A stretch of DNA of 48,300 nucleotides from Candidatus Gottesmanbacteria bacterium RIFCSPHIGHO2_01_FULL_40_15 (GCA_001779115.1 MFJF01000001.1:1-48300), one strand, 5' to 3'; positions 13,120-26,967 are shown, counted from the stretch's first letter. Notes: generated from the sequence alone by a model not told the origin. Numbers and translations are program-made.

Positions 13120-13851
13120 ATGATCTTTAATCTCTTATTTTTGACTTTTTCACTGTTGTCCTTTTATTTGGGCTCTCCTCCGGTAATGGCCCAGGATATG
13201 AACTCAGAAAATTATATTTTGCAGGGAGGAAACTTCAATATTGCCGGAGGCAATAAATCCTCTTCGGGATACCGCCTTATCGATCTTGTTGGACAAACAT
13301 CTGCCCAGGTTTTTTCCTCAAAAGGATACCTTATCCAATCGGGATTTAACAACCGTGCGGCTGGTTCCTCCCTGATTTTTTCCATATCACCCCTCGGAGT
13401 TAACTTCCCTGGTCTGGTACCCAATTTGCCGCAAACTCGGGATCTTCTGATAACTGTAAAAAGTGGCAATTTCCCCGGATTTGCTGTTTATTTGGCTGAA
13501 GATAAACAGCTGTCATCGGAAACTAACGCCGTAATTCCCGATACTGTCTGTAATGCCGCCAAAGATGCTCCCTGCAATAAAGACTCAGCCGGTCTCTGGA
13601 ATTTATCGGATTCATACGGATTTGGTTATCAGTTGGAAGGAAAAAAGATACCTGAAGATTTTAAAAAACCAGGCTTTTTTCGTCCTTTCGCCTCACTTAA
13701 TAAAAATGAGCTTGCTTCCCTTATTATGGAAACAGCAGAACAAAATTCAGAGCAAAATGCCAGAATGATACTGAAAATTAATGTCTCCCGCACACAGCCG
13801 GTGGGTATCTACAGTAATAATTTAAATTTTACAGCCCTGCCGGGTATTTAA
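13120..13851 (+). CDS. Secreted WxL-like surface protein
   Basis: Signal peptide (..PVMAQ), MNSENYILQGGNFN N-domain, a Cys pair, YGFGY, and C-terminal PVGIYSNNLNFTA resembling the WxL terminal strand. Confidence 0.6.
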   Translation: MIFNLLFLTFSLLSFYLGSPPVMAQDMNSENYILQGGNFNIAGGNKSSSGYRLIDLVGQTSAQVFSSKGYLIQSGFNNRAAGSSLIFSISPLGVNFPGLVPNLPQTRDLLITVKSGNFPGFAVYLAEDKQLSSETNAVIPDTVCNAAKDAPCNKDSAGLWNLSDSYGFGYQLEGKKIPEDFKKPGFFRPFASLNKNELASLIMETAEQNSEQNARMILKINVSRTQPVGIYSNNLNFTALPGI

Positions 13852-13854
13852 TCG

Positions 13855-15843
13855 ATGCTGAAACATCTTTTTTATTGCCTCTTATTGCAATTATTTCTGA
13901 TTATTCTCTTTTCAGTTTTCCCCCGTGTCAGGTCTGAAGTATCAGCTCAGTCACTTTCATTAACTGTAGAACCTCCGGTTACGGAAATTATGATCAAACC
14001 GGGACGCTTCGTCAGTCAAAAATATACTCTGAAAAACCAGGGTGAAGACACACTGATGAGTGTTGTCCTGTCGGGATTTAATGAGAATGGCCTGGCTGAT
14101 ATAAATAGCCATGATATGGTTATAGACTGGATAAACCCCGTCTCAGCTAAACTTTCCTCCGATATTACACCTGACACGCGGGATCTGAAAATAATTTCCC
14201 CGGTAGTTTCCCGGGACCTGTCAACCGTTTTGTTGATCGATCCCTTTCTTCTGCCGAAAAACGGTCGTCTGGATCTTATTCTCAATATCAGTCCAGCCAA
14301 ATCAACAAAAGAACAGGATTACTATATGGCACTGGTATTTTCTTCAAATCCGAAATTTCCGGCCCGGGAAAACCGGAGCCAGTTTAATCAATCTCTGGCC
14401 GGTCTTCTATTGGTAACAGTAACTGAATCAGGTTTGAAAAAAATTGTGGAAATTCCGGAATTTAACCTTCCCGTTATTCATGATTCCTTTTCCCCACTGG
14501 AGGTTGACATACAGGTTAAAAACTCCGGTCAGACATATTTCCGCCCCAACGGCAATTTGGTAGTTATAGGACCGGTCGGACAGGCTAAATTCCCTTTAAT
14601 CCCCCGGGTTCATTTAGTCGGCCAAAGCCGTCCGCTCCTTCTGGAAGGCATGAGTGAAAATAAAATATCCGGCTTTTTTCTGGGTAAATATCAGGTTAGG
14701 CTCGATTTCGTCCTTGACGAAGGTAAAATAAAAATAATCCGGGAAAAAACTTTATTTGCCCTGCCTTGGAAATTGGCAACTCTAATCATATCAACTGTTT
14801 TATTAATAACACTAATGAATAAATTGAAATCACGTTATAAATCTTCTGATTTGAAACATTCCAAGAAAGTTCAGACAAAAAAAACCCGCCGGAAACATAC
14901 TTTGTCATTGTTATTGCTGTTGGAGTTGCTGCCGGCGCTTTTCCTGAACTGTCAGCTTTTCTTTCCCCGATCTGTCTTTTCAGCCAATAACCCGTCCTCA
15001 AATATTCCTGTCAAAGCTAAACTGGGTTTTCGCTCCTACGTCAGAATTTACGGTTATACGTCACCATATACTATTGTAAAAGCCGAAGCTCCCAGAACTT
15101 ATGGCACCGCGGTCTCGGATAATAACGGATTTTTCTTTCTTGATAATCTGGCTGTTCCCGATAGGGTTAATGAAATTTGTCTTGAATCATTGGACGCTGA
15201 AAACAGATCCGGTTTCCCGGTTTGCCTGCCTGTACCTCAGGGAAAAATTAAAAAAAATCTCGGACCGGTTTTTCTTCCTCCGACCTTATCTCTTTCTCAT
15301 AATCTGTTTTATGTCGGCCAACAGGCCTTCGCCTCAGGACGAACATTACCGTACCAGACGGTTAAAATTGCTCTATTTGAAGCAAAATCCGATCGGTCCC
15401 GTCTTTCTAATTTTACTATAGGACAAGTCTTTGCTTATAAATTACCGGTTTTAACTACTGTCTCCGATTATGAAGGTAGATTTAACTTTACTCTTCCGAC
15501 GGGAAAAGTTTCCGCATTCCGATTGTATGCTGCGGGAGATTATAAGGATAATCCGATTCCGAAGAGTCAAACTATATACTTCTATATAAATCCACTATCA
15601 CACTTTTATTTTCAACGGCTCTTACCGCTCATTCTTTGGACAATAACATCGGGCGCTATTTGTGTTGCACTTTATTTATATGACAAAAAAACCGGAACAA
15701 TAAGTTCTTTACTCAAAGAAATAAATTATTTTCTGTCTGATTTTATTGATAGGAAATATGCACCGTTTGGGGTAAAACTGCGTTTGAAACGGAAACGTTT
15801 ATGGTATAATCTCCGGGCTTTGCTGAAGTTGCGTCAAAAATAG
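13855..15843 (+). CDS. WxL-interacting (DUF916/DUF3324-like) domains plus TM, fused to a second Ig-like membrane-anchored module
   Basis: LTVEPPVTEIMIKPG..YTLKNQG; QVKNSGQTYFRPNG..GKYQVRL..FALPWK-TM; then an internal signal-like segment and YGYTSP..SDNNGFF..EICL..PVCL..LPPTLSL..C-terminal TM. Confidence 0.6.
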   Translation: MLKHLFYCLLLQLFLIILFSVFPRVRSEVSAQSLSLTVEPPVTEIMIKPGRFVSQKYTLKNQGEDTLMSVVLSGFNENGLADINSHDMVIDWINPVSAKLSSDITPDTRDLKIISPVVSRDLSTVLLIDPFLLPKNGRLDLILNISPAKSTKEQDYYMALVFSSNPKFPARENRSQFNQSLAGLLLVTVTESGLKKIVEIPEFNLPVIHDSFSPLEVDIQVKNSGQTYFRPNGNLVVIGPVGQAKFPLIPRVHLVGQSRPLLLEGMSENKISGFFLGKYQVRLDFVLDEGKIKIIREKTLFALPWKLATLIISTVLLITLMNKLKSRYKSSDLKHSKKVQTKKTRRKHTLSLLLLLELLPALFLNCQLFFPRSVFSANNPSSNIPVKAKLGFRSYVRIYGYTSPYTIVKAEAPRTYGTAVSDNNGFFFLDNLAVPDRVNEICLESLDAENRSGFPVCLPVPQGKIKKNLGPVFLPPTLSLSHNLFYVGQQAFASGRTLPYQTVKIALFEAKSDRSRLSNFTIGQVFAYKLPVLTTVSDYEGRFNFTLPTGKVSAFRLYAAGDYKDNPIPKSQTIYFYINPLSHFYFQRLLPLILWTITSGAICVALYLYDKKTGTISSLLKEINYFLSDFIDRKYAPFGVKLRLKRKRLWYNLRALLKLRQK

Positions 15844-16174
15844 CTTTACCGTATTGGTCGGTCATCTGTTGTACCGGGTCGATTTCAATCTCATCAGGAG
15901 CTATTATCAACGTTTTCTGCCCTGAAACGCCCAGTCCCTGACTGTCCAACAGAAATACTGTAATGCGGATGGCAGTTTCTCCGTCAGCTAATGCGGAAAT
16001 TGGCGAAGCAAAAATATAAGAATTGTCCTTTGAAAAAATACTGCTGTATCTTGTTCCTGACCCGGTTGCCCTTCCTGAAGTAGACAATCTGTCGCGGGTA
16101 ATTGAAATTGCGGTAATTATTATAATGAGCGACAAAACTATACCGGCTATAATATAAGGTTTAAGGAGTTTCAT
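15743..16174 (-). CDS. Membrane-anchored bacterial Ig-like (Big_1/invasin-type) domain protein
   Basis: ALADGETAIRITVFLLDSQGLGVSGQ...TDQYGKAIF..TS.KPGDYTINVSV. Start moved to ATG 16174, which follows TTGACT-N18-CAGAAT. Convergent 101-bp overlap with the previous gene. Confidence 0.8.
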   Translation of the reverse strand: MKLLKPYIIAGIVLSLIIIITAISITRDRLSTSGRATGSGTRYSSIFSKDNSYIFASPISALADGETAIRITVFLLDSQGLGVSGQKTLIIAPDEIEIDPVQQMTDQYGKAIFDATSAKPGDYTINVSVSNAVLPQTVHISYQ

Positions 16175-16491
16175 AATCTTATTCTGGCAGATAAGGAATA
16201 TGGTAGTCAAGTTTTGATCAGGCTGATGCTTAATATACAAAATGTCCTATAATAATAAGCCTAAAGAAGAATGATACTGTATTATATAATTTGGATCATA
16301 ATACAATGTTTTATACTTGCCCGAGCGTAAGAAGGAGAAATTATATTCTTTTGTAATAAAGAAAGTCTTCAAAGAACAAAAAAGATTGTCCTAATAACCC
16401 AAAATCAGTGTACCCTTTTTTTAGCAGTTATGATCGTCTATTTGCTAATATAAATATTAATCTATCTTCAAAAATTATTTTAAATATTACC

Positions 16492-16559
16492 GAAAAATCA
16501 CCAAAAATAACTATTAGCTGCTGTTAGACCTATAGTACATGGATTTTTGGCGATATTTC
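16492..16559. repeat. 17-bp imperfect inverted repeat with a 34-bp spacer
   Basis: GAAAAATCACCAAAAAT (16492-16508) versus ATTTTTGGCGATATTTC (16543-16559), 15/17 complementary. Confidence 0.65.
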
Positions 16560-16812
16560 TTTTGGTTTTTAATTATTAATTATTACTGTCCCATAATACT
16601 ATATTATATATATAGATATATTTAAGATTATTTAATCTATGGGGTATCCTCGATTTTTTCCGCAAAAATTAAAAATTTCTGTTTTGCTTGAAAAAAATAA
16701 CAGATCATACTATATCATTAATCGGAAAATCAAACAATGGAATATCTGATATCAAAAGATATATTAAGCATGCGTATAAATAAATGCGGGAATTCGTGAA
16801 ATGTGTCAGTCC

Positions 16813-16848
16813 CCCACATATCTTCCTCATTCTCCCATATCTTCCTAC
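16813..16848. promoter_or_regulatory. Direct-repeat operator-like array (MraZ-box-like)
   Basis: CATATCTTCCT occurs twice (16817, 16836). Pentamers CCCAC/TCCTC/CCCAT/CCTAC occur at 10-11-bp spacing, i.e. GTGGG-like boxes on the minus strand. Confidence 0.4.
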
Positions 16849-16873
16849 TATACATTAAATAGGTCAATTCCTA

Positions 16874-16904
16874 TTGACAAACTTATTACTATTGTGTTTA
16901 CTTT
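16874..16904 (+). promoter_or_regulatory. Probable promoter of the giant fibre gene (TTGACA ... TACTTT)
   Basis: TTGACA at 16874-16879 overlaps the palindrome GTCAAT-TCCT-ATTGAC (16863-16878). TACTTT at 16899-16904 is 5 nt before the ATG. The 19-bp spacer is long. Confidence 0.45.
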
Positions 16905-16909
16905 AATTA

Positions 16910-19900
16910 ATGAGTATATCACAATATAATTTATCTAATTTTGAGGCTAATTTTTATATCTATCTTAAAAATCTGAGTATTTCCCGCATAGTAAAAAAAA
17001 GGCTTAAAAATGACTTTAAAGACTATCTTACTGTACTGCGGTTATCTTTTCCCGCATATAATCTCGGGAATTTCAACAGGCTGTTTACCGCAAATATATT
17101 GCAAACTGTTTTGAAGCTGAATCGGAGAAAAAATAAAAATATCAAGAGGTGGTCTCATTTTAAGGAAATTCTGCTCTCCTACAAAGATCATCTTAATCGT
17201 CAAGAAAATATATATCAATCTACAGCAAATAACAGCCTAAGTGACTCAGAAATCTTTTCAGAATATCTTAAATCTCTTACTAAGAAAAAATTATCCTCAT
17301 CTACGTATCACAATTACAAAGCTGATATTAAACAATTTATTGCCTATATTTACTCACGTCAATTAACCCTGGACTTTATCAATTCTTCCTCTACCCTGGC
17401 TGATTTTTTAGTTTATTTAAAAAATAATCTTAAATTATCTGATCAATCAGTTTCCAGAAAATTATCAGCTTTAAATTCATTTAAATTATGGATAAAAGAA
17501 GCTGGAAAAGAATTTAATTACCTTCAAATATTATCCGAAGAAATCCCGAAAATAAATGAATCCGGCCTTAAAATTCCGATCGGGAAAACAACTCCTGAAA
17601 GTTTATACTCCGACCCCCAATCGAATCCGGCTGTTTCTTCAGTATCTCCTCCTTCTGCTTCCCCGTTAACTTCATTTTTCTATTCTTTTATTTTGCTCAT
17701 CCTTTCAGTATCATTAAGTATCGGAATATATCAACAGTTCTTCAAGGATACTCCGTCACCTCAAGCCTTTCCGGCTCAACCGGTCAGACCGGGTCGGGTA
17801 CTAAATTTTCAAGGAAGACTGACTGATCAGACAGGAAATCCGGTTTTCGATAAAACCTCTATAAAATTCCGTATTTGGGATAAAGATTCAGGAGGATTGG
17901 AACTTTATGATTCTGATTTCTGTTCCATAACTCCCGACCAAAATGGTATTTTCTATATCTTATTAGGATCAACGTGCGGCAAAGAAATTGACAGTAGTGT
18001 TTTCTCAGAAAACCTTTACACTTATCTCGGAATTACTGTCGGAAATGATGAAGAAATGCGTCCCAGACAACAAATCGCCTCAGTAGGCTATGCACTAAAC
18101 AGTGAAACTTTACAGGGCTTGCCTCCGCAATCACCGGCCGGTATATCAACAATACCGTTTATTGATAAAGAGGGCCAGATGTTAATCAGTGCTCCCGGTC
18201 CGATGATCAGATCAACATCGGGCACTTTCACTTTGGAAGGAAGAAGTATTAATTTTCAAACAGGTTCGGGTTCGGGAGGTTCCATCAGTTTTTCTCCTGA
18301 CGGCAATGGGACCGTTAATCTGAATTTGGGAGGATTCTCACCTGCCTCCGGATCCGGATTCCTCAATGTCCTGGGGCCTAATATTATTTCAGGCAGTTTA
18401 ATTTCTGCTATAGGATCAACTCTGACTGCCGGATATAAACTTATAGAACTTTCTTCAGGTAATCCCTCGACCGGTAAATTTTCCGTAGATGCCGGCGGAA
18501 ATACTATCATTTCCGGAGATTTAAGTATCGGCAACCACCTCCATTCAACACCTTCCGGTACTCTTGTAAATTCACCTCTTAGTGTAAACGGCCAGATTTA
18601 TGACGGTGGTCTGGGAATTTACGCAACAAGCGGCCGCAGAATCCCTGTTGCTTTTGACTTTACTAAAGATACCGTTATTGAATTTGATTTCAAATCAGCA
18701 TCAAACAAGATCGAAATACAAACAAATATAAATGAAGAAGGTTTAAAATACTACCTTTTTACCTGGGCTGCGACAGGTGCTATGACGATCGAGAAATGTA
18801 ATCCGGCTTGCACTCAACTAACCTCCTCTACTCTTTCTTTTACCAATGACACCTGGCACCACGGTTTTATCAGCTTTTCAGGCAGTAATATAAAATGGGA
18901 TCTCGATAAAGGCGGAAAAACAATAACCGCATCAGTAAATTCAGATGTGCCTAAAATTTCAGGAGGTTACACCGCCTTTACTTCCGGATTTCGGGCCATA
19001 TCAAATCTTCGGTTTTCCCCGACATCTGATCTCATCTTATCTTCCGGAAATGCCGCTTTGGGAGGCCGGTTAACGGTCGCAGACCATATTGTCACTTCTG
19101 GTCAGATTCAAACAGGCAGCTTTTCTTCGGAGCCGCAGGCATCAGGCAACGGAGCTTTGTATTTTAACTCCACAGACGATAAGCTTTATTATTACAACGG
19201 CACAGATTGGACTTCAACCAACTTGGGTGACACCGGTCCGACCGGAAGCGTCGGTGCCACAGGTCAAACCGGCCCTACGGGAAGCGCCGGTTCAACAGGC
19301 GCGGTCGGCCAAACCGGCCCCACGGGACCGGAAGGAGAATCAGGTCCGACAGGTTCAACTGGTCCCTCAGGCGGAACAGGCACAACAGGGCAAAGTGGTC
19401 CGACAGGCTCAACCGGAGCTACCGGTCCGGCCGGACCGGGAGGTGAAACTCTGCTCTACTATTCAGGTTCGGGAGAATCCGCGTTTCTTTATCCGAATAC
19501 CGACTACTCATATGATCTGGCCATGAAAGGCCTTATCCTGGGCTACAGCGGTGCTGCCGGAGCCACCATCACAACCGGGGATACCAATGAAGGCCTGGTC
19601 ATCGACCCTGACGGAACAGGCTCTGTCAGTATAGTTGGGAATACGGATATTGAAGGGTATCTGACAATTGACACTGATCCTTCCGGAGCATTTAACGAAA
19701 GTCTTTGTCATAGCGGTGGTGACGGAGATACAAATGATCTGAAATTAGGAGACTGTATAGCCGGAGGAGCTGATCTGGCCGAATATTACGGTGCCTCACC
19801 GGATGTTGCTGCCGGTGACATTGTCGTAATTTCAGCTGAAGGCTACCAGATTGATAATAAAAAGTTAGGCCGATCTTCAAAAGCATTTGTTGCCAAATCA

Positions 19901-22039
19901 TCAGTACCATATCAAAAAGATATAATTGGCATCGTTTCTGCAAATCCTTATTCTGAAATACTCTCCGAAGGCGTCTTTGAAAATGATGAAAACCCTGTTC
20001 CCGTCGCCCTGGCCGGACGTGTTCCTGTCAAATTCTCTTCGGAAAATGGTCAGGTAGAAAAAGGTGATCCGGTAACTTCGGGAAGCATTCCCGGATTCGC
20101 CATGAAAGCAAATGAAACCGGGCCGGTTGTCGGTAAAGCATTGGAAAGTTTTAATTCTGACTATTCCCAACTATCCTGTCCTGATGGCACTCCCTCCCGT
20201 ATAAAATGCGGTGAAATTTTGGTTTTGCTCAATTTGAGCTTCTATATTAAAACCCTTTCCCAGGATGAACTCAGCCGGTATACCCTGATAGCTGGTGGGT
20301 ACTCTGGCCAAAGCACTCTCAATTCCTTGAAGGAAGTTGCTGCCGGTGTTATGGACTCTGCCGCCGGTGTACTCTTTTCCCTCAAAGCTTCTTTTGAATC
20401 ACTTACTGCCGGGGATATTGAAGCGGAAAAACTTACTTCGGCCATTATTGAGTCGGATGAAATTTTAACGCGAAACTTAAAAACTGATGTTATTTCACCA
20501 CTTTCTGATAATGGGGAAGTAATAATTGAAGGCAATTTGGCAGTTTATAACGAAAATGGCACCATTTCAGCAATACTTGACCGTCAGGGTAATCTTAACA
20601 CTCAAGGTAATATCACCGCCGGTTATGCTACTTTTAGATCACTCCTTGAGGCTGAAAATGCTTCCGTTGCCGGATTATTAAACACAGCCTCACTGAGAGT
20701 GGAAAATGCTACTGTTACCGGAACTCTCCACGCTGACGATATCCGTTCAACCCGTCTTGATAATCTGCAAAACTCATTCGGCAGTCTTTTGGAAAAATTA
20801 AATGAAATTGCCACAGCATCCGCCGCTCTGCCTGCCCCTTCTCCAAAAACGGGCGTACCGGCACCGACCGTGTATCTTTCTCCGACTATAAGTCCGCCAT
20901 CCGATACGGCATTTCCCAAAGAGACGGGATTTTCAACGCTCTCCGCCTCATTGCTTGTTCAATCTGATAAGTCCGGTTCGGACCGGTATATTTCCGACCT
21001 TGTCACAGCTTCTCTGCAAAATACGGATAATCTGCTTACGTTAAACCAAAGAATTGAGGATTTCCTGAAAAATTCTTCCTCAGTGCTTGACGATACTTAT
21101 AAGAAGTTTCCCTTATCGGATTCACATTCTTCCATAAATGTGGATTCACCGGTTGAAATTGACCCCGCTATGCTGAAAAACCTCACCGTTACCGGAGAAT
21201 CTTCTCTTGCCGATACATCAATAGCCGGCCAGCTTCTGATTGACGGATCCTTAATATTGGAAAATAGCAGTATAAAAGCTTTAGAAACTTTATATCTTTC
21301 TTCCGAAAAAACAATTGATCTTATGGGAGGAAAAGTTTTAGTTGACGAAAACGGCAATCTAACCGTTAAAGGTGAAATACTGGCTGAAAAAGGAATAAAA
21401 ACCAATACCGTTAGCGCCTCCGGCAACCTTAATATTAATTTGGCCCCGTTGCCTTCTGAAACGCCTGCAGATTCTTCTTCCGGGCAATTTGATTCATCAC
21501 CCATAAAGGATCAATCTGGTCAGGCTGCTTCGGAAAGAATAGGAGGCTTTGGAAAGCTTCTTATTAATAATTCTTCAATTACGGTGGCAGCCATTGACGG
21601 ACAGGGAAATGCCAAGTTCTCGGGTGATCTTCAAATTGATAAAAATGCCAGTGTTAAAGGCGCCTTAAGCACCTCGAAATTATATCTGCAAAATTCGCAG
21701 GATAGTTCCGGTAATCCTGAAACTATATCCGCGGCCGAAAATTTTCTGCAAAATAATATTAATGCTCCCGGCCTTAATGCGTCGGGTTCGATAGGTTCGG
21801 CAGTCATTCCCGCTTCCAACCGGGAATTCGTCATCTTCACCGACAGTCTTTCCCAAAACTCGCTTATCTACCTGACTATTACTTCAAAGGTACAAAATAG
21901 AACATTATATCTGGCAAAACAAAAGTCCTGTCAGGAGGATACCGCTGCCGATTCTGTTTCCTGCCGGCCTTACTTTACTGTTGCGCTCGATATTCCTTAT
22001 GAGAAAGATATTTCATTCAATTGGTGGCTGGTCAATTAA
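16910..22039 (+). CDS. Giant membrane-anchored fibre/adhesin with an N-terminal tyrosine-recombinase core-binding (SAM-like) domain, collagen repeats and a peptidase G2/IMC-like domain
   Basis: aa ~114-199 EYLKSL...[16 protein letters not shown]...[19 protein letters not shown]; TM at aa ~256-274; [10 protein letters not shown] fibre N-domain; G/S/T-rich beta repeats; 25 GXY triplets; [46 protein letters not shown]; C-terminal FNWWLVN. Confidence 0.85.
19226..19450 (+). repeat. Collagen-like (Gly-X-Y)25 repeat, Thr-rich at Y
   Basis: [18 protein letters not shown] ... GPA GPG GET, uninterrupted. Confidence 0.95.
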
Positions 22040-22081: not shown

Positions 22082-22381
22082 ATGCTAAATCAGATAAAAA
22101 AAGACCCTTTTATTCCGGTAATTCTTGTTCTCACTTTTATGCTGTCTATTATGATCACTTCGTTTGTTAGGGGAAAAATCTATAAACCGCTTCAATATAA
22201 AAATTCTTCCAATGTCCTGGGTCTTTCCACATTTCATCCGCTCCCTCCTGACTGCCGGCCAGGCAGTTGCGGCTTCTGCGCAAATTGCGGTTCAAATCCG
22301 GGAATAAGTTGCGGACCTTTATCCCGGTGTTCCCAAAAAGACGAAAATTACTACTGCCGGTTTGACTTCAATTGTCAATAA
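22082..22381 (+). CDS. Small membrane-anchored Cys-rich protein (8 Cys)
   Basis: N-terminal TM, VLG linker, then CRPGSCGFCANC...C...C...C...C; TATAAT (22070-22075) lies 6 nt upstream. Confidence 0.75.
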   Translation: MLNQIKKDPFIPVILVLTFMLSIMITSFVRGKIYKPLQYKNSSNVLGLSTFHPLPPDCRPGSCGFCANCGSNPGISCGPLSRCSQKDENYYCRFDFNCQ

Positions 22382-22415: not shown

Positions 22416-24245
22416 ATGAGGCTATATAAACTGAAAAGTTTACCTGATTCCTTAATAACCGCTGTTTTTACCTTTTTCATACTGAGCTTTCCCTTGTTAT
22501 TTCTTAATCTCACTTTCGAACCGGCCGAACACAGCAAACTTCTATCGTTAATTTTAATTTGCAGCCTGCTGCTTTCTCTGATGTCATTAAACATTCTGAA
22601 GGTAAAAAAAGTTACGCTTGTCAAAAGCACTTACGCGATACCGCTGATTTTGATTACCGCTTTTTACCTGTTAAGCTCGATTTTAGTCTCGCCTAATATA
22701 TTTCTGACTCTCAATACTTCCCAATCAACATCATCTTGGCTGGCTCTTCTTTTCCTTTATTTAACCCTCACGGGATTTTTTTCATTTAATGACCGGTTCC
22801 GGAAAACCACACTTATTCTGATTTCCGCAGGAACATCACTTGTAGCTCTCTATCAGTATTTAATGTATTTGCGCTATATACCGTTTAATCTTATTCTGCC
22901 GACCGGCAATCTGCTCTCTTCAGCAGTTTTTTTCTCGGTTGTCATTATCTTAACCATTGCCAATTTAACCGTACTGATAAGTAAAGAAAAAGATAATCTG
23001 GTTCAAACTATCAAAAAAAATATCATCCTGCTTCTGTCATTAGTAATCCTCATCCCTGCGGATATGCTTCTTATTCTCCATCTTCTTTCTGATCAAAAAC
23101 CGATTCTTCTTCCGCACACCATTGCCTATTCCATAGTCGGCCAAATAATAAACCATCCAAAAACTTTCTTATTAGGAGTCGGGCCGTCTAATTTCATTTC
23201 CGCTTTTACTTTAGGCAAACCCCTTTCAATAAATTATTCATCTCTTTGGAATATTACTTTTACCAGTTCTTCTTCATTTTTCACGACACTGATTACGGAA
23301 ACAGGAATTTTAAACGGTATTATTTTCCTGTCTGTTGCCGTAATATCGATCTGGCGTGTCAGAAAATTCAGATATTTGGACCGCTTTCCTGCCCTTTTTG
23401 GATTGAATATCCTGCTTATATTACTGATAATATTTCCGGGTAGTCTTTCTCTTCTTATTCTTCTGGTTATTCTTTTATCGCTGTCGGCAGACGTTAATAA
23501 TAAAAAGACTGTCAGTCTTAAAAGAATTGGTCCCCTAATCTATTTTCTGCCGGTTTTGTCAATATTTATATCCTTCTTAATAATCTATTTCACCGCAAGA
23601 GCCTATTTAGCTGAAAGTTTTTACCGTCTGTCATATAACTACCTGGATAAAAATGACGGAACAAATGCTTATAATTATCAAAGAAAGGCCGTCAGCCTTA
23701 ATCCTTATATCGATAAATACCATTTGGCTTTATCCCAAAGCTCAATCATTCTGGCTGATGCCATGGGCAAAAAAAAGGATTTATCCCAAGATCAAAAACA
23801 GATGATACCCAAGCTGGCTCAACAGTCAATTGAAGAAGGCCGGATGAGTATTAGTCTTAACAAAACCAATGTTTTTAATTGGGATAATTTGAGTAAAATT
23901 TATTCGGCTCTTATTAATTTTGCCGCAGATTCTGACCGCTGGGCAATTGAAACCGCCAAACAAAAAGTAACTCTTGATCCCAAAAACCCCAATAACTGGC
24001 TCAATTTAGCTCTTATATATAACAAACTGGAAAATTATGATGATGCGGAAAAATCGCTTCTCCGGGCTATCGAACTAAAAAATGATTTGCCCGGCCTCCA
24101 TTATCAATTAGGATTAGTCTATAAAAATAAGAATAATTTAGGGAAAGCCCGGAGCTATTTTGAAAAAGCCTTAAACATGCTGCCTGAGGATAGTCCCGAT
24201 TACATAAAAGTCGAAATGGAGTTAAAAACATTTGCCTCTCCTTAG
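22416..24245 (+). CDS. O-antigen ligase/PglL-like polytopic membrane protein with C-terminal TPR repeats
   Basis: ~12 TM; FLLGVGPSNF, TLITETGILNG (Wzy_C-like); TPRs such as DPKNPNNWLNLALIY and LHYQLGLVY. Confidence 0.8.
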   Translation: MRLYKLKSLPDSLITAVFTFFILSFPLLFLNLTFEPAEHSKLLSLILICSLLLSLMSLNILKVKKVTLVKSTYAIPLILITAFYLLSSILVSPNIFLTLNTSQSTSSWLALLFLYLTLTGFFSFNDRFRKTTLILISAGTSLVALYQYLMYLRYIPFNLILPTGNLLSSAVFFSVVIILTIANLTVLISKEKDNLVQTIKKNIILLLSLVILIPADMLLILHLLSDQKPILLPHTIAYSIVGQIINHPKTFLLGVGPSNFISAFTLGKPLSINYSSLWNITFTSSSSFFTTLITETGILNGIIFLSVAVISIWRVRKFRYLDRFPALFGLNILLILLIIFPGSLSLLILLVILLSLSADVNNKKTVSLKRIGPLIYFLPVLSIFISFLIIYFTARAYLAESFYRLSYNYLDKNDGTNAYNYQRKAVSLNPYIDKYHLALSQSSIILADAMGKKKDLSQDQKQMIPKLAQQSIEEGRMSISLNKTNVFNWDNLSKIYSALINFAADSDRWAIETAKQKVTLDPKNPNNWLNLALIYNKLENYDDAEKSLLRAIELKNDLPGLHYQLGLVYKNKNNLGKARSYFEKALNMLPEDSPDYIKVEMELKTFASP

Positions 24246-24247
24246 TT

Positions 24248-25273
24248 TCACTTAACAATGGCAAACACCGCTCCGGAAAGGATAATAAGATATAAAATCC
24301 AACCGGTAAAAAATGACTTTACGGCAAAAAGTGTTCCTTCCTCTCTTGCTGAAAATAATAGAAATTTTCTGACCCCCCAAAGATGCACTAAAAGAAATAA
24401 AATAAATCCGGCAGCCGTTAAAAGAGACCAAAATCTTAATCCGAAGATTTGGAACAGGATATATAATCCCAAAAAGAAAGCTGTCAAACCGGCCGATATT
24501 GTCGTTAGTGCTTCCTTGGAGGTAGTCGCCACCGGGTCAAATTTTTTTCTTTCCCGGTATATCTTGCTCCAAAAATAACTTCGCCAGAAATATTTTTTGG
24601 CAATCGGCAGAAAATCCTCAAACTCATGCCTGACCATAACTTTGGGATTAAATACAACAGCGTATCTTCGGGCAATTCTGTAAGTCAGTTCAATATCTTC
24701 TACCAGTGCCGTTTTATATGTCGTATCAAAGCCCTTAAGTCTTAGAAATAAGGATCTGTTTATGGCGGCAATCCTGGTCGAAAAAAGATAATAGTAATTC
24801 CGGGGATCTCTTTCGTTAATCCAGTAACTCCAGTCTCTTAATGCTTTAAACTTTGGAAAAAATTTTCTGTTTTTCTGGGTTCGGGTCCAGACGCCGGTTA
24901 GGGCAAATAGGTCCGGATCTTTCTTAAATGAACTGATTACCTCAAAAAGCGTATTTTTATATAGATAAACATCAGCATCCAAAAAAAGGGCAATTTTCCC
25001 GCGGGCGTATTTTACTCCTATATTCCGGGCTTTTGCCGGACCGCAATTCTCTTTTAAGGAAATTATTTTTACCCCGGAAGTATTTTTCCTTTTCGCAAAT
25101 CTCGCAATAACTCTTTTAGCTTCCGGCAAAGTTTGATCAATGGAAAAATCATCAACTAGACAAATCTCTATTTCATTTAAATCAACGCTTTTTGAATTAT
25201 AAATGGACGTGAGTAATCCGCCGATCTTTCCCTGGCTGTTATAGGCCGGGATGATAATGGAAAGAAACGTCAT
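24248..25273 (-). CDS. GT2 glycosyltransferase with C-terminal TM helices
   Basis: SIIIPAYN, LVDDFSID, GPAKARNIG, LFLDAD, EDIEL. Confidence 0.92.
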   Translation of the reverse strand: MTFLSIIIPAYNSQGKIGGLLTSIYNSKSVDLNEIEICLVDDFSIDQTLPEAKRVIARFAKRKNTSGVKIISLKENCGPAKARNIGVKYARGKIALFLDADVYLYKNTLFEVISSFKKDPDLFALTGVWTRTQKNRKFFPKFKALRDWSYWINERDPRNYYYLFSTRIAAINRSLFLRLKGFDTTYKTALVEDIELTYRIARRYAVVFNPKVMVRHEFEDFLPIAKKYFWRSYFWSKIYRERKKFDPVATTSKEALTTISAGLTAFFLGLYILFQIFGLRFWSLLTAAGFILFLLVHLWGVRKFLLFSAREEGTLFAVKSFFTGWILYLIILSGAVFAIVK

Positions 25274-25311: not shown

Positions 25312-26967
25312 ATGTTCAAGTATAAAAATTGTATTTTGCTTGGCATCTTGCTCTTTTTCCTCACCTTTTCCTTTTACCCGACCGTCTATGAAATACGCCA
25401 GTCACCGCGCCTAAAGGTCAAAAACCGGAATTTTATCCTGGAACACAACTATTACTGGCCTGATTTTAACCTCTATCTGTCCAAAGTCAGGCAGGGTTAT
25501 GAAAACAGATGGCTGGCGGTTGAAAAATATACCTCGGAACCCCACCGGGGCTCCCTTATTCAGATCTTCTATCTCTATATGGGAAAAATCGGTATGAGTT
25601 TGGGTCTTCAACCCAATATTGCCTACCAGCTTGGCCGGATAATACTCTCGCCGCTCCTTTTAATAGTTATTCTTATGTTGGTCCAGTATTATTTCCGCGC
25701 TCCTTTATGGCAGATTCTTGCCTTTGTCATAACTCTTGTCTCCGGCAGTTTTTTGAAAATCAGCCGGATTGACGGCACTTTAAGATTGGAGCGCTTCATG
25801 GAATGGTGGTCAAATATTGATTCCCTCCAGCGTATTACTTTTATTCCCCACATTCTCTTCGGTCAGGTTATTTCTTTTTATCTCCTTTTCCGGATAACCC
25901 TGTCAAAAAATCCCCTAAAAAAAAGCCGGCTCCTTATTTATATAATTCTGGCAAATCTCGTCGGATTAGTTTTTCCTCCCAGCTTGATTACCCTCTTGGG
26001 TGTCTTAATCCTGCTTCAAATAATTGAGTTTATAAAAAATCCGAAACCTGTTTCTCAAAAAGTAAACCTTTTGCTTTCATCACCCGAATTGCGGTTTATT
26101 CTATTCTCTCTTCCTTCACTTTTATACCTTTATATTACCACCAAAATTATCCCCTGGTCTGCCCTGGTAGAATTTCACCGTACCCATCCGATGATGATTC
26201 CTTTTGATCAGTATGTTCTGGGCACCGGCCCGGTCATATTTCTTGGATTTTTGGCCGGAATTTTGGCAATTATCAGTAAGGAAAAAAGATTTTACCCGAT
26301 GATTCTCTGGGTAGTTGTTACTTTCCTGTTTGCCGCGCTGTTTTCGGTTGTTAAGGAACAAAGTCCTCTCCGCTTCACCCAAACAGGACTCTTTATTCCC
26401 TTAGGCATATTGGGTACTTATTTTATGTACCGGCTTGCCGGTGTAATCAACTTAAACTTCTATAGGTATTTGATCTTTTTTTTAATTGTTCTGTATATCG
26501 GATCAAACTTATTCGTTATGAAAATGAGCTTAAATTGGCAACTTTCTTTCATTAATCAAAGGGTTGGTGCTGACATTCCCGCAGTACCCTTTCCTCCGCA
26601 AACCATGTATCCGCTGACCGAGTGGATGGACGCTATAATTTGGCTGAAAAATAACACCGGGAATGAAGATGTTGTCCTGGCGGAAATAACAGCCGGGAAT
26701 TTTATTCCGGCTTATTCCGGCAACTTTGTCTATTTCGGCCAAAGTAATACCGTTGATTACAACCGGAAAGGTGATGAAGTTAACCGCTTCTTCACCGCTC
26801 AAATGACCGACAGCCAGGCCGGGATTTTCCTCCGGAATGGCCGTATCGGTTACGTTTTCTTCGGAGTCCAGGAAAAGGAAAAGTTGGGCTGGAAAAATCT
26901 GGAAGAATATTATCCCTTTTTAAAACCGGTCTTTAAGAACAATTCTGTTGTTATTTACCGGATTTAA
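25312..26967 (+). CDS. GT-C-type polytopic membrane protein (paralog family A)
   Basis: DFNLYLSKVRQG..YTSE..FYLYMG, IPH, and a C-terminal soluble domain W.KNNT...FIPAYSGNFVYFG; TATAAT 6 nt upstream. Confidence 0.7.
   Translation: MFKYKNCILLGILLFFLTFSFYPTVYEIRQSPRLKVKNRNFILEHNYYWPDFNLYLSKVRQGYENRWLAVEKYTSEPHRGSLIQIFYLYMGKIGMSLGLQPNIAYQLGRIILSPLLLIVILMLVQYYFRAPLWQILAFVITLVSGSFLKISRIDGTLRLERFMEWWSNIDSLQRITFIPHILFGQVISFYLLFRITLSKNPLKKSRLLIYIILANLVGLVFPPSLITLLGVLILLQIIEFIKNPKPVSQKVNLLLSSPELRFILFSLPSLLYLYITTKIIPWSALVEFHRTHPMMIPFDQYVLGTGPVIFLGFLAGILAIISKEKRFYPMILWVVVTFLFAALFSVVKEQSPLRFTQTGLFIPLGILGTYFMYRLAGVINLNFYRYLIFFLIVLYIGSNLFVMKMSLNWQLSFINQRVGADIPAVPFPPQTMYPLTEWMDAIIWLKNNTGNEDVVLAEITAGNFIPAYSGNFVYFGQSNTVDYNRKGDEVNRFFTAQMTDSQAGIFLRNGRIGYVFFGVQEKEKLGWKNLEEYYPFLKPVFKNNSVVIYRI

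Follow-up and report, generated by a model that had tools for sequence, protein, structure and literature searches.

A 48,300-nt stretch of DNA from Candidatus Gottesmanbacteria bacterium RIFCSPHIGHO2_01_FULL_40_15 (MFJF01000001.1:1-48300; hereafter the window, the whole stretch that was analysed) contains a long gene on the plus strand (16910..22039) whose product we call the fibre protein. A preliminary description of this gene had proposed a trans-envelope fibre linking an integrase-type DNA-binding domain inside the cell to a collagen-containing adhesin outside. The gene is a single open reading frame (ORF), as had been noted then, of 1709 amino acids (aa) plus stop, preceded by an AT-rich spacer of 670 bp, and it encodes, in this order, a degenerate SAM-like domain, a canonical SAM-like domain, a disordered linker, one transmembrane (TM) helix and an acidic ectodomain of 1430 aa. 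Two Pfam families score over their cut-offs, Phage_int_SAM_1 (aa 118-196) and Collagen (aa 775-827), and searches of Pfam and PHROGs with eight segments of the protein gave nothing significant for aa 1-110, 280-600 and 1100-1709. The single RNA run among the listed sequencing runs contained next to none of the sequence words of the stretch. We consider it well supported that this gene specifies a bitopic surface fibre, with its N-terminus inside the cell (N-in), of a small-genome bacterium (1.33 Mb) of the Patescibacteria type; that the fibre is membrane-anchored, modular, adhesive and carbohydrate-reading, and contains a lectin domain as well as a collagen spacer whose length varies; and that its cytoplasmic head is made of two tandem tyrosine-recombinase core-binding domains that lack a catalytic domain and are under constraint.

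The cytoplasmic head and its membrane anchor

The second domain of the head (aa 108-203; 17231..17518, +) is a canonical core-binding, SAM-like domain of the tyrosine-recombinase type, much as had been suggested for aa ~114-199 by likeness to XerC/D. PF02899 (Phage_int_SAM_1) matches it at aa 118-196 with 31.9 bits against a cut-off of 22.3 (E 1.7e-7), and with 36.3 bits when the domain is searched as a separate segment. An AlphaFold 2 (AF2) model of the head, computed from a 12-sequence alignment of aa 1-300 (mean column identity 37%), has a mean predicted local distance difference test score (pLDDT) of 69.8 and contains two helical domains, aa 8-103 and aa 112-202, with an identical five-helix pattern. 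In fold searches, aa 108-218 of this model superpose on XerA (5hxy; Z 12.2, root-mean-square deviation (rmsd) 2.1 over 91), XerD (1a0p; Z 11.5, rmsd 1.7 over 85), IntI (2a3v; Z 11.1, rmsd 2.7 over 94), lambda Int (2oxo; Z 9.6, rmsd 2.5 over 89) and Cre (1drg; Z 9.5, rmsd 3.0 over 93), which lays to rest the concern that the N-terminal region might lack the core-binding fold. Foldseek again put XerA, XerD, IntI, lambda Int and Cre chains on top, with weak E-values (0.04-1). Eight residues of domain 2 (T132, N135, Y136, D139, Q142, R183, K184 and S186) are invariant in the 12 sequences.

The fibre protein thus shares with XerC, XerD, XerA and the phage integrases a PF02899 domain, the core-binding fold and the motif residues. 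In contrast to these enzymes, however, its SAM domain is duplicated and is followed not by a catalytic domain but by a TM helix and the 1430-aa ectodomain. As had been anticipated, the integrase catalytic family PF00589 has no Pfam match in the whole protein at E<=1, and the NCBIfam XerC/XerD models align to it only over positions 2-84 of ~290. Since the catalytic domain is absent, the protein is not a tyrosine recombinase, and we reject its annotation as a true integrase; ordinary Xer-sized genes (frames of 309 and 338 aa) are found elsewhere in the same genome.

In passing, the best sequence match of the SAM-like profile in the PDB was the first ~98 residues (E 1.8e-7) of 9i5v chain 14, a 401-aa Porphyromonas gingivalis chain deposited as RaiA. 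The accessible part of PMC12123416 describes this chain as 400 aa long, with only 34 residues modelled on the ribosome. Its sequence suggests that an N-domain of the recombinase type has been fused to a hibernation factor; we set the chain aside as having no bearing on the fibre.

For the first domain of the head (aa 8-103; 16931..17218, +), which had been put forward as a possible degenerate copy at aa ~8-97, the support is mixed. Its five-helix pattern agrees with that of domain 2, and hhalign aligns its profile over the full length with one built from 125 fibre SAM domains (probability 89-93%, E 3e-7, in a single comparison), while its equivalents in four orthologues give weak matches to a custom SAM hidden Markov model (HMM; iE 2e-4 to 0.01). 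On the other hand, the hhalign probability between domain 1 and domain 2 of its own subfamily was 6.6%, which counts against a second copy, and the custom SAM HMM made no in-register match to domain 1 of the window protein itself. A fold search with aa 4-103 likewise returned no core-binding match, its best hits being unrelated helical chains (Z<=5.4); however, this does not speak against a core-binding fold, because the fold-search list was filled by domain 2. In the 12 sequences, E12 and I24-S25-R26 of domain 1 are invariant. We accept domain 1 as a putative degenerate core-binding copy: the helical pattern and the profile alignment stand, whereas a fold match and a likeness to its own domain 2 were not obtained.

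A Pro/Ser-rich linker (aa 204-251; 17519..17662, +) joins the head to the membrane. It is predicted to be disordered over aa 203-250 of the AF2 model, with pLDDT <50 over aa 200-248, and leads into the single TM helix (aa 252-277; 17663..17740, +), which is recognized by hydrophobicity, by the AF2 helix and by family conservation, has a conserved GIGIYQQFF end and lies within the sole strong hydrophobic segment of the protein (aa 249-278). The outline given earlier, a Pro/Ser linker, one TM helix and a fibre of ~1430 aa, is thus borne out. The N-side of the window protein has a pI of 9.8 and the C-side a pI of 4.5, and the C-side contains all 10 cysteines, whose spacing would suit five pairs. 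Across ~55 members of the family the ectodomains have pI 4.1-5.2 and the cytoplasmic parts pI 8.7-10.7, bar two outliers: the value of 5.8 comes from a raw locus frame in which read-through from upstream is included, and that of 5.2 (library protein P0066) is unexplained. Since 250 aa, including a folded basic domain, precede the helix, we infer that it is an N-in signal-anchor, and we reject a cleaved N-terminal signal peptide.

The ectodomain and the spread of the family

The AF2 monomer model of the ectodomain (aa 279-1130, aligned with 18 relatives) is poor as a whole (mean pLDDT 52.7) and gives no usable fold for the shaft, the collagen and the G2-like parts, but it contains two confident domains, at aa 298-388 and aa 578-703. 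The first of these belongs to the base of the fibre (aa 285-424, around LNFQGRLTD; 17762..18181, +), which begins ~10 aa past the TM helix and is modelled with pLDDT 88-92 over aa 298-388. All 15 aligned members match NF053851 (Bdello_MAT_N), with a best E of 3.9e-9 and an E of 3.1e-5 for the window protein, although every match stays under the 60-bit cut-off (23.8 bits for the window protein) and profile positions 16-75 of 162 are covered. The homotrimer prediction for this domain, computed with three copies, scores 0.93 against 0.42 for the best control, with partner pLDDT >=90 and runs that have 90% or more of their contacts in common; in the calibration of the tool, for which two copies and not three were used, 20 of 30 solved homo-pairs and one of 23 single chains reach the mark. 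Taken as predictions, these results support well that the base domain trimerises and is related to the MAT N-domain of Bdellovibrio, and because a collagen run, the relation to MAT fibres and the homotrimer prediction concur, the fibre is probably a trimer, as had been supposed.

The MAT fibres of Bdellovibrio bacteriovorus are trimers, and in the accessible part of PMC10769870 their N-terminal domain is predicted to lie next to the cell surface and follows a signal peptide, which is cleaved and leaves no cytoplasmic part. The protein described here resembles them in being a long modular fibre with a sugar-binding module, an NF053851-related base after the export signal and a predicted trimeric state, but it differs in its signal-anchor, its recombinase-type head, its score of 23.8 bits where 60 are required, and the lack of an S74 chaperone-protease motif (SDxxxK), for which the fibre protein was searched. 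We take the host to be a monoderm-type bacterium of the Candidate Phyla Radiation (CPR), and Bdellovibrio to be a predator with an outer membrane. Judged by a profile score that lies under the cut-off, the ectodomain would be the closest thing to a MAT fibre outside Bdellovibrio.

The second confident domain falls within aa 561-708 (18590..19033, +), where a lectin-like insert had been recognized. Its model matches Caenorhabditis elegans LEC-6 (Z 14.9, rmsd 2.1 over 125) and CBM66 (Z 13.0), the fold matches overall spanning Z 13-14.9 and rmsd 2.1-2.5 over 122-130 residues, and Foldseek returned levanase and CBM66 chains (E 3e-6 to 5e-5). On the strength of this model, the segment is predicted to be a beta-sandwich of the galectin/ConA type. 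Hits to this second domain took up both fold-search lists for the ectodomain.

The collagen run comprises 25 uninterrupted G-x-y triplets (aa 773-847; 19226..19450, +) and is matched by PF01391 with 32.4 bits against a cut-off of 27.2, so that this part of the preliminary description holds. The insert is absent from the orthologues P0003-P0005, while contigs of runs X15 and X16 and the cluster representative P0002 (1724 aa) carry a gain of 45 nt (15 aa, five triplets) at 19265-19309; collagen copy number varies between populations. A G-x-y run of variable copy number is also a feature of the collagen-like surface proteins Scl1/Scl2, BclA and Lcl. Unlike them, however, the fibre protein has no LPXTG (LP.TG) motif, reaches only 37-46 bits with NCBIfam models whose cut-offs are 325-500, and belongs to a group in which P0003-P0005 do without collagen altogether. 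An LPXTG-anchored collagen adhesin was rejected on the first two of these grounds.

Two further modules follow. A beta-rich segment with the motif GGADLAEYY (aa 925-1115; 19682..20254, +) has language-model neighbours in viral clusters of which 15-23% of members carry PF11962 (score 0.94), and weak matches to PF23982 (E 0.0034) and phrog_6427 (E 4.8e-5). Of the IMC-like domain proposed earlier, only this language-model lead, of the Peptidase_G2/IMC kind, survives: neither PF11962 nor PF13884 matches the whole protein at E<=1, and PF11962 does not match the aa 925-1115 segment at E<=10 either. A 275-aa exported membrane protein encoded beside the ATP synthase genes on contig 32 of the same genome (L006 10797-11624, -) resembles fibre aa ~997-1105 (27% identity over 110 aa, E 3e-5, in a single comparison), so that the module also occurs by itself. 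Finally, the C-terminal end (~aa 1610-1709, ..FNWWLVN; 21737..22036, +) is kept in the orthologues P0003-P0005 and is presumed to be the distal tip; the family profile matches the structure of the Bd2439 tip (8OL4) with E 1.2e-4, in a middle region.

Neither the gene nor its layout is peculiar to this assembly, as might have been feared. The stretch 16910-18400 is present in 20 runs from 16 studies of groundwater, soil and sediment, of which 11 runs may be the source, and the junction from the second SAM domain through the TM helix to the base was bridged by contigs of all four other runs examined, which come from four studies (record 11 of run X16, for instance, spans 16853-19309). Orthologues that are 36-44% identical to it over aa 1-300 have the same layout along their whole length. 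In the genome itself PF02899 occurs in five places, namely the two Xer-sized frames, the fibre gene and two tandem copies on contig 32. The last two belong to a paralogue (L006 1-4860, -) whose frame of >1620 aa, open at the contig end, encodes two canonical SAM domains, a TM helix and >1100 aa of uninterrupted G-x-y.

A search of relatives gave PF02899 in frames of at least 900 aa in 14 of 40 genomes (8/20 of the same family and 6/20 of other families of the class), the longest frame having 5641 aa. In 19 of the 20 long-frame loci that were fetched, a hydrophobic segment directly follows the SAM domain or domains; in the remaining one (L018) the segment is under threshold, yet the locus aligns over the TM region. 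In a phylum-wide sample, none of 96 genomes of other classes has PF02899 in a frame >575 aa, whereas four genomes of the same class have it in frames of 738-2581 aa; restriction to the class is thus judged from samples of 40 and 100 genomes, and several homologous loci end at contig ends. A phmmer search with aa 1-250 against 1.84 billion representatives yielded 76 matches at E<=1e-3. Ten of these are Xer-sized and have no TM segment. Of the 30 that reach 900 aa or more (the longest has 6192 aa), 29 have a hydrophobic segment beyond the SAM domains and within their first 500 aa, and in 28 there is exactly one; in 24 an F/YQGRLT motif follows the segment at a distance of 40-70 aa.

A base-domain match is present in 18 of the 41 genomes searched, and only G034 has more than one (two); 16 of 18 base-domain matches outside the genome of origin have PF02899 within ~1 kb upstream on the same strand; the two that do not are G008:C119 and one at a contig start in G034. 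Two subfamilies can be told apart. Subfamily A combines a degenerate and a canonical SAM domain with a TM helix and a MAT-like base; subfamily B (L012, L017, L023, L024 and L026, with the contig-32 paralogue being similar) combines two canonical SAM domains with a TM helix, a different base and long collagen. We regard it as well supported that SAM domain, TM helix and base form a conserved module that is usually single-copy in genomes of this class.

Upstream sequences and neighbouring genes

The upstream region contains three conserved features on the plus strand. The most distal is a GATATATTAA box ((T)TGATATATTAA in orthologues; 16758..16767), defined by conserved columns in an alignment of nine upstream regions, which could be a -35-like box or one half of an operator. 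About 17 nt further on lies a 17-nt element, TGCGGGAATTCGTGAAA (16785..16801), 109-125 nt before the start codon. The third is a TTGACA box (16874..16879), which the upstream alignment marks as a candidate promoter together with a conserved TTATTAYTATTG block further on, shortly before the start codon. A k-mer comparison of the nine regions brought out TGCGGGAA(A/T)T(C/T)GTGAAA above shuffle levels, and a GCGGGAA core stands at -124 to -163 in eight of nine orthologous loci. The exact 17-nt pattern has one site in the 1.33-Mb genome, four others requiring two mismatches, and the reversed-pattern control has none. With at most one mismatch allowed, the 41 genomes contain 13 sites in 12 genomes (11/20 of the same family plus the genome of origin), against none for the control, and 12 of the 13 lie upstream of a SAM-fibre gene: for 11 a PF02899 match follows on the same strand at 448-600 nt, and for one a base-domain match at 1070 nt, the site at G008:C92 being unplaced. 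To judge from this pattern of conservation, the element may possibly be an operator for a locus-specific DNA-binding protein. In the interval 16241-16960, Rfam returned no family at E<=1, and a strict sigma-70 scan found no plus-strand promoter and one minus-strand site against 5.9 expected from shuffles. The upstream regions of subfamily B are without the GCGGGAA element; a TTGACA box and TTGATATNTCAA are weakly common among them, at counts near shuffle levels.

The divergent neighbour (15743..16240, -) encodes a small TM-anchored Big_1 protein of the invasin Ig type (PF02369, 44.8 bits), with homologues in the same divergent position at L007, L009, L015, L018 and L020. Downstream lie a 99-aa TM protein with a Cys-rich tail, CGFC..CG..SCG..C (22082..22381, +), which is conserved directly downstream in L008, L010 and L013, and a 609-aa polytopic membrane protein with C-terminal TPRs (22416..24245, +), which is conserved downstream in L008, L010, L013 and L016 and weakly in L019. 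The TPR families match the C-terminal part of the latter. Its membrane part has no Pfam match, and its language-model neighbours are clusters with O-antigen ligase (Wzy_C) and TPRs (score 0.97), a lead, and so far a lead only, that fibre or wall is glycan-modified. Both downstream neighbours may modify or partner the fibre. Family searches found no DNA-binding-type domain among the conserved neighbours.

Beyond this operon lie a GT2 glycosyltransferase gene (24248-25273, -) and a gene for a 551-aa polytopic protein without a family match (25312-26967, +), which fit a glycan-handling neighbourhood. On the other side of the fibre gene, a 243-aa protein (13120-13851, +) gives weak matches to NCBIfam CPR_pilus_PamT (E 5.6e-8, under cut-off) and to the Pam pilin C-domain (E 0.038). 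Together with the adjacent 662-aa exported protein (the two genes lying within 13120-15843) it may be part of a CPR 'Pam' donor-strand pilus locus of the kind described in the preprint PMC13278184, the accessible part of which mentions neither integrase nor collagen.

What the inner head may do

The model that we tentatively place first, while considering its chances to be just short of even, holds that the head binds duplex DNA and that the fibre works as a one-component, membrane-bound regulator in the manner of ToxR or CadC, which regulates itself and perhaps reports engagement of the fibre. Its structural part is well supported: the fibre is held in the cytoplasmic membrane by its signal-anchor helix and presents outside, in this order, a trimerising base of ~130 aa, a beta-rich shaft, the lectin, the collagen triple helix, further modules and the conserved tip. 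A trimer would place six SAM-like domains on flexible linkers of ~50 aa beneath the membrane. By analogy with recombinases, we infer that the inner head may keep the work of core-binding domains, namely binding to duplex DNA, and its prime candidate target would be the genome-unique 17-nt element, with its upstream box, before its own gene. Co-translational membrane insertion would keep the fibre locus near the membrane, so that occupancy of the element would feed back on fibre synthesis; occupancy could also shift when the fibre is engaged or pulled. Self-regulation of the ToxR type is favoured because the conserved locus offers no other DNA-binding candidate and because a genome-unique site lies ~110 nt upstream.

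With ToxR, CadC and TcpP the fibre protein has in common an N-terminal cytoplasmic domain of a DNA-binding type, a single TM helix, a sensing part outside and a candidate target at its own locus. It differs from them in that its head has a recombinase core-binding fold instead of an OmpR-type winged helix, of which there is none (in Pfam and fold searches, only SAM-like families match the cytoplasmic part), and in that its outer part is a 1430-aa fibre. Since the DNA-binding-type fold differs, the likeness would be one of working and not of membership.

Several observations weigh against DNA binding, or against the 17-nt element as its target. First, MRG domains (Eaf3/MRG15), which are of a protein-interaction type, also match domain 2 (Z 7-9.4), so that the fold by itself is no proof of DNA binding; domain 1 is without the hallmark residues of the family; and isolated recombinase core-binding domains bind DNA only weakly without their catalytic domain. 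Second, a basic N-side would be produced by the positive-inside rule alone. Third, the conserved neighbours are all envelope proteins, which suits a surface job over a DNA job. Fourth, the element is absent from the orthologous locus L016 and has no site in 20 genomes of other families, though six of these carry SAM fibres. The element could also act in RNA, being possibly the 5' end of a leader, or possibly the start of a short upstream ORF, MRE(I/F)VK, which has variable tails of ~8-45 codons and no visible ribosome-binding site.

Some of these points lend themselves to a second explanation, which we hold to be unlikely though by a good way not negligible: the head would not bind DNA at all but would be a recycled helical bundle that serves as a cytoplasmic anchor or docking piece of a purely adhesive fibre. 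Its task might be to set the N-in orientation, to hold the three chains together, or to bind a partner in the cytoplasm or at the pole, as the helix-turn-helix domain of RodZ does with MreB. Such a role is consistent with a fold common to MRG protein-interaction domains (Z 7-9.4, as above), with the degeneracy of domain 1 and with the envelope character of all conserved neighbours. It also agrees with the Bdellovibrio MAT fibres, which, according to PMC10769870, have no inner head and make do with an ordinary signal peptide. However, residues that define the recombinase core-binding family are invariant across genera, and an arbitrary anchor would not need them. Moreover, the head is kept with 16 of 18 base domains in relatives, and it often comes, in subfamily B for example, as two copies that are both canonical.

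A bolder version of the DNA-binding model, which we rate as distinctly unlikely, would see in the family a new class of trans-envelope one-component system, in which an enzyme-less core-binding domain is the DNA-reading inner end of a trimeric adhesive fibre, and contact or tension is coupled directly to DNA. The target would then be either its own operator, for feedback or contact-dependent control, or the nucleoid, and no kinase, sigma factor or second messenger would intervene.

It is improbable, in our judgement, that the fibre is instead a nucleoid tether, the leading idea of the preliminary description, with the six heads of a trimer binding chromosomal DNA with little sequence preference and thus holding the nucleoid under the attachment site for the sake of polarity or segregation. 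Multivalent basic heads on flexible linkers, the core-binding fold and a base-domain match that usually occurs once per genome (twice in G034) would all fit. Yet the base-domain fibre turned up in only 18 of 41 genomes, which is few for a core role in segregation, although many of the assemblies are incomplete. The neighbourhood contains no genes for partition or division, and a conserved site that is unique in the genome and lies at the promoter of the fibre gene suits a specific target better.

Very improbable is a released messenger, in which contact or tension would lead to a cut near or in the membrane by regulated intramembrane proteolysis, as in systems of the RsgI/RseA type or in CadC, and the freed head would act on DNA or on a partner. 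The juxtamembrane stretch is indeed very strongly conserved across otherwise divergent members, and a long flexible linker separates head and helix; but no cleavage motif or protease partner was identified, the SDxxxK S74 motif included, and the conserved stretch may be the mere start of the trimeric base. RsgI-type anti-sigma factors are themselves bitopic: their head in the cytoplasm binds a partner, and the part outside carries a sugar-binding module. In contrast to them, the fibre protein has no anti-sigma domain (Pfam, NCBIfam) and no adjacent sigma-factor gene. That the gene is an artefact, either a chimera of the assembly or the remnant of an integrase gene that happened to fuse with a fibre gene, is scarcely credible, for although repeat-rich genes often break assemblies and many homologous loci stop at contig ends, the junction is bridged by independent contigs in 4/4 runs, the layout recurs in 14/40 relatives and in 30 long library proteins, and the frame is open over 5.1 kb.

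In the literature searched, with subscription journals and InterPro architecture tables outside its scope, we found no protein described in which a SAM-like domain, a TM helix and a fibre are combined. What is new here is the anchor, if one starts from MAT-type fibres, or the head, if one starts from bitopic regulators.

CPR bacteria, or Patescibacteria, make up a large share of bacterial diversity, and many are thought to live attached to hosts, by attachment proteins and means of sensing that are mostly unknown. The fibre family offers a concrete handle on this attachment, being conserved, usually single-copy in one class and equipped with recognisable adhesive parts. Its inner end derives from a family of DNA-binding domains, and its layout could link surface contact to DNA, and the 17-nt element provides an immediate probe for the DNA-binding question. 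If the head does not bind DNA, the family would still extend MAT-type fibres from the predatory Bdellovibrio to CPR bacteria, and annotators would still be warned that PF02899 in this class often marks surface fibres and not integrases. If, on the other hand, the head does bind DNA, this would be, to our knowledge, the first case in which the core-binding domain of a recombinase reads DNA on its own while tethered to the membrane, and organisms with few regulators would have a very direct route by which the surface could reach the genome.

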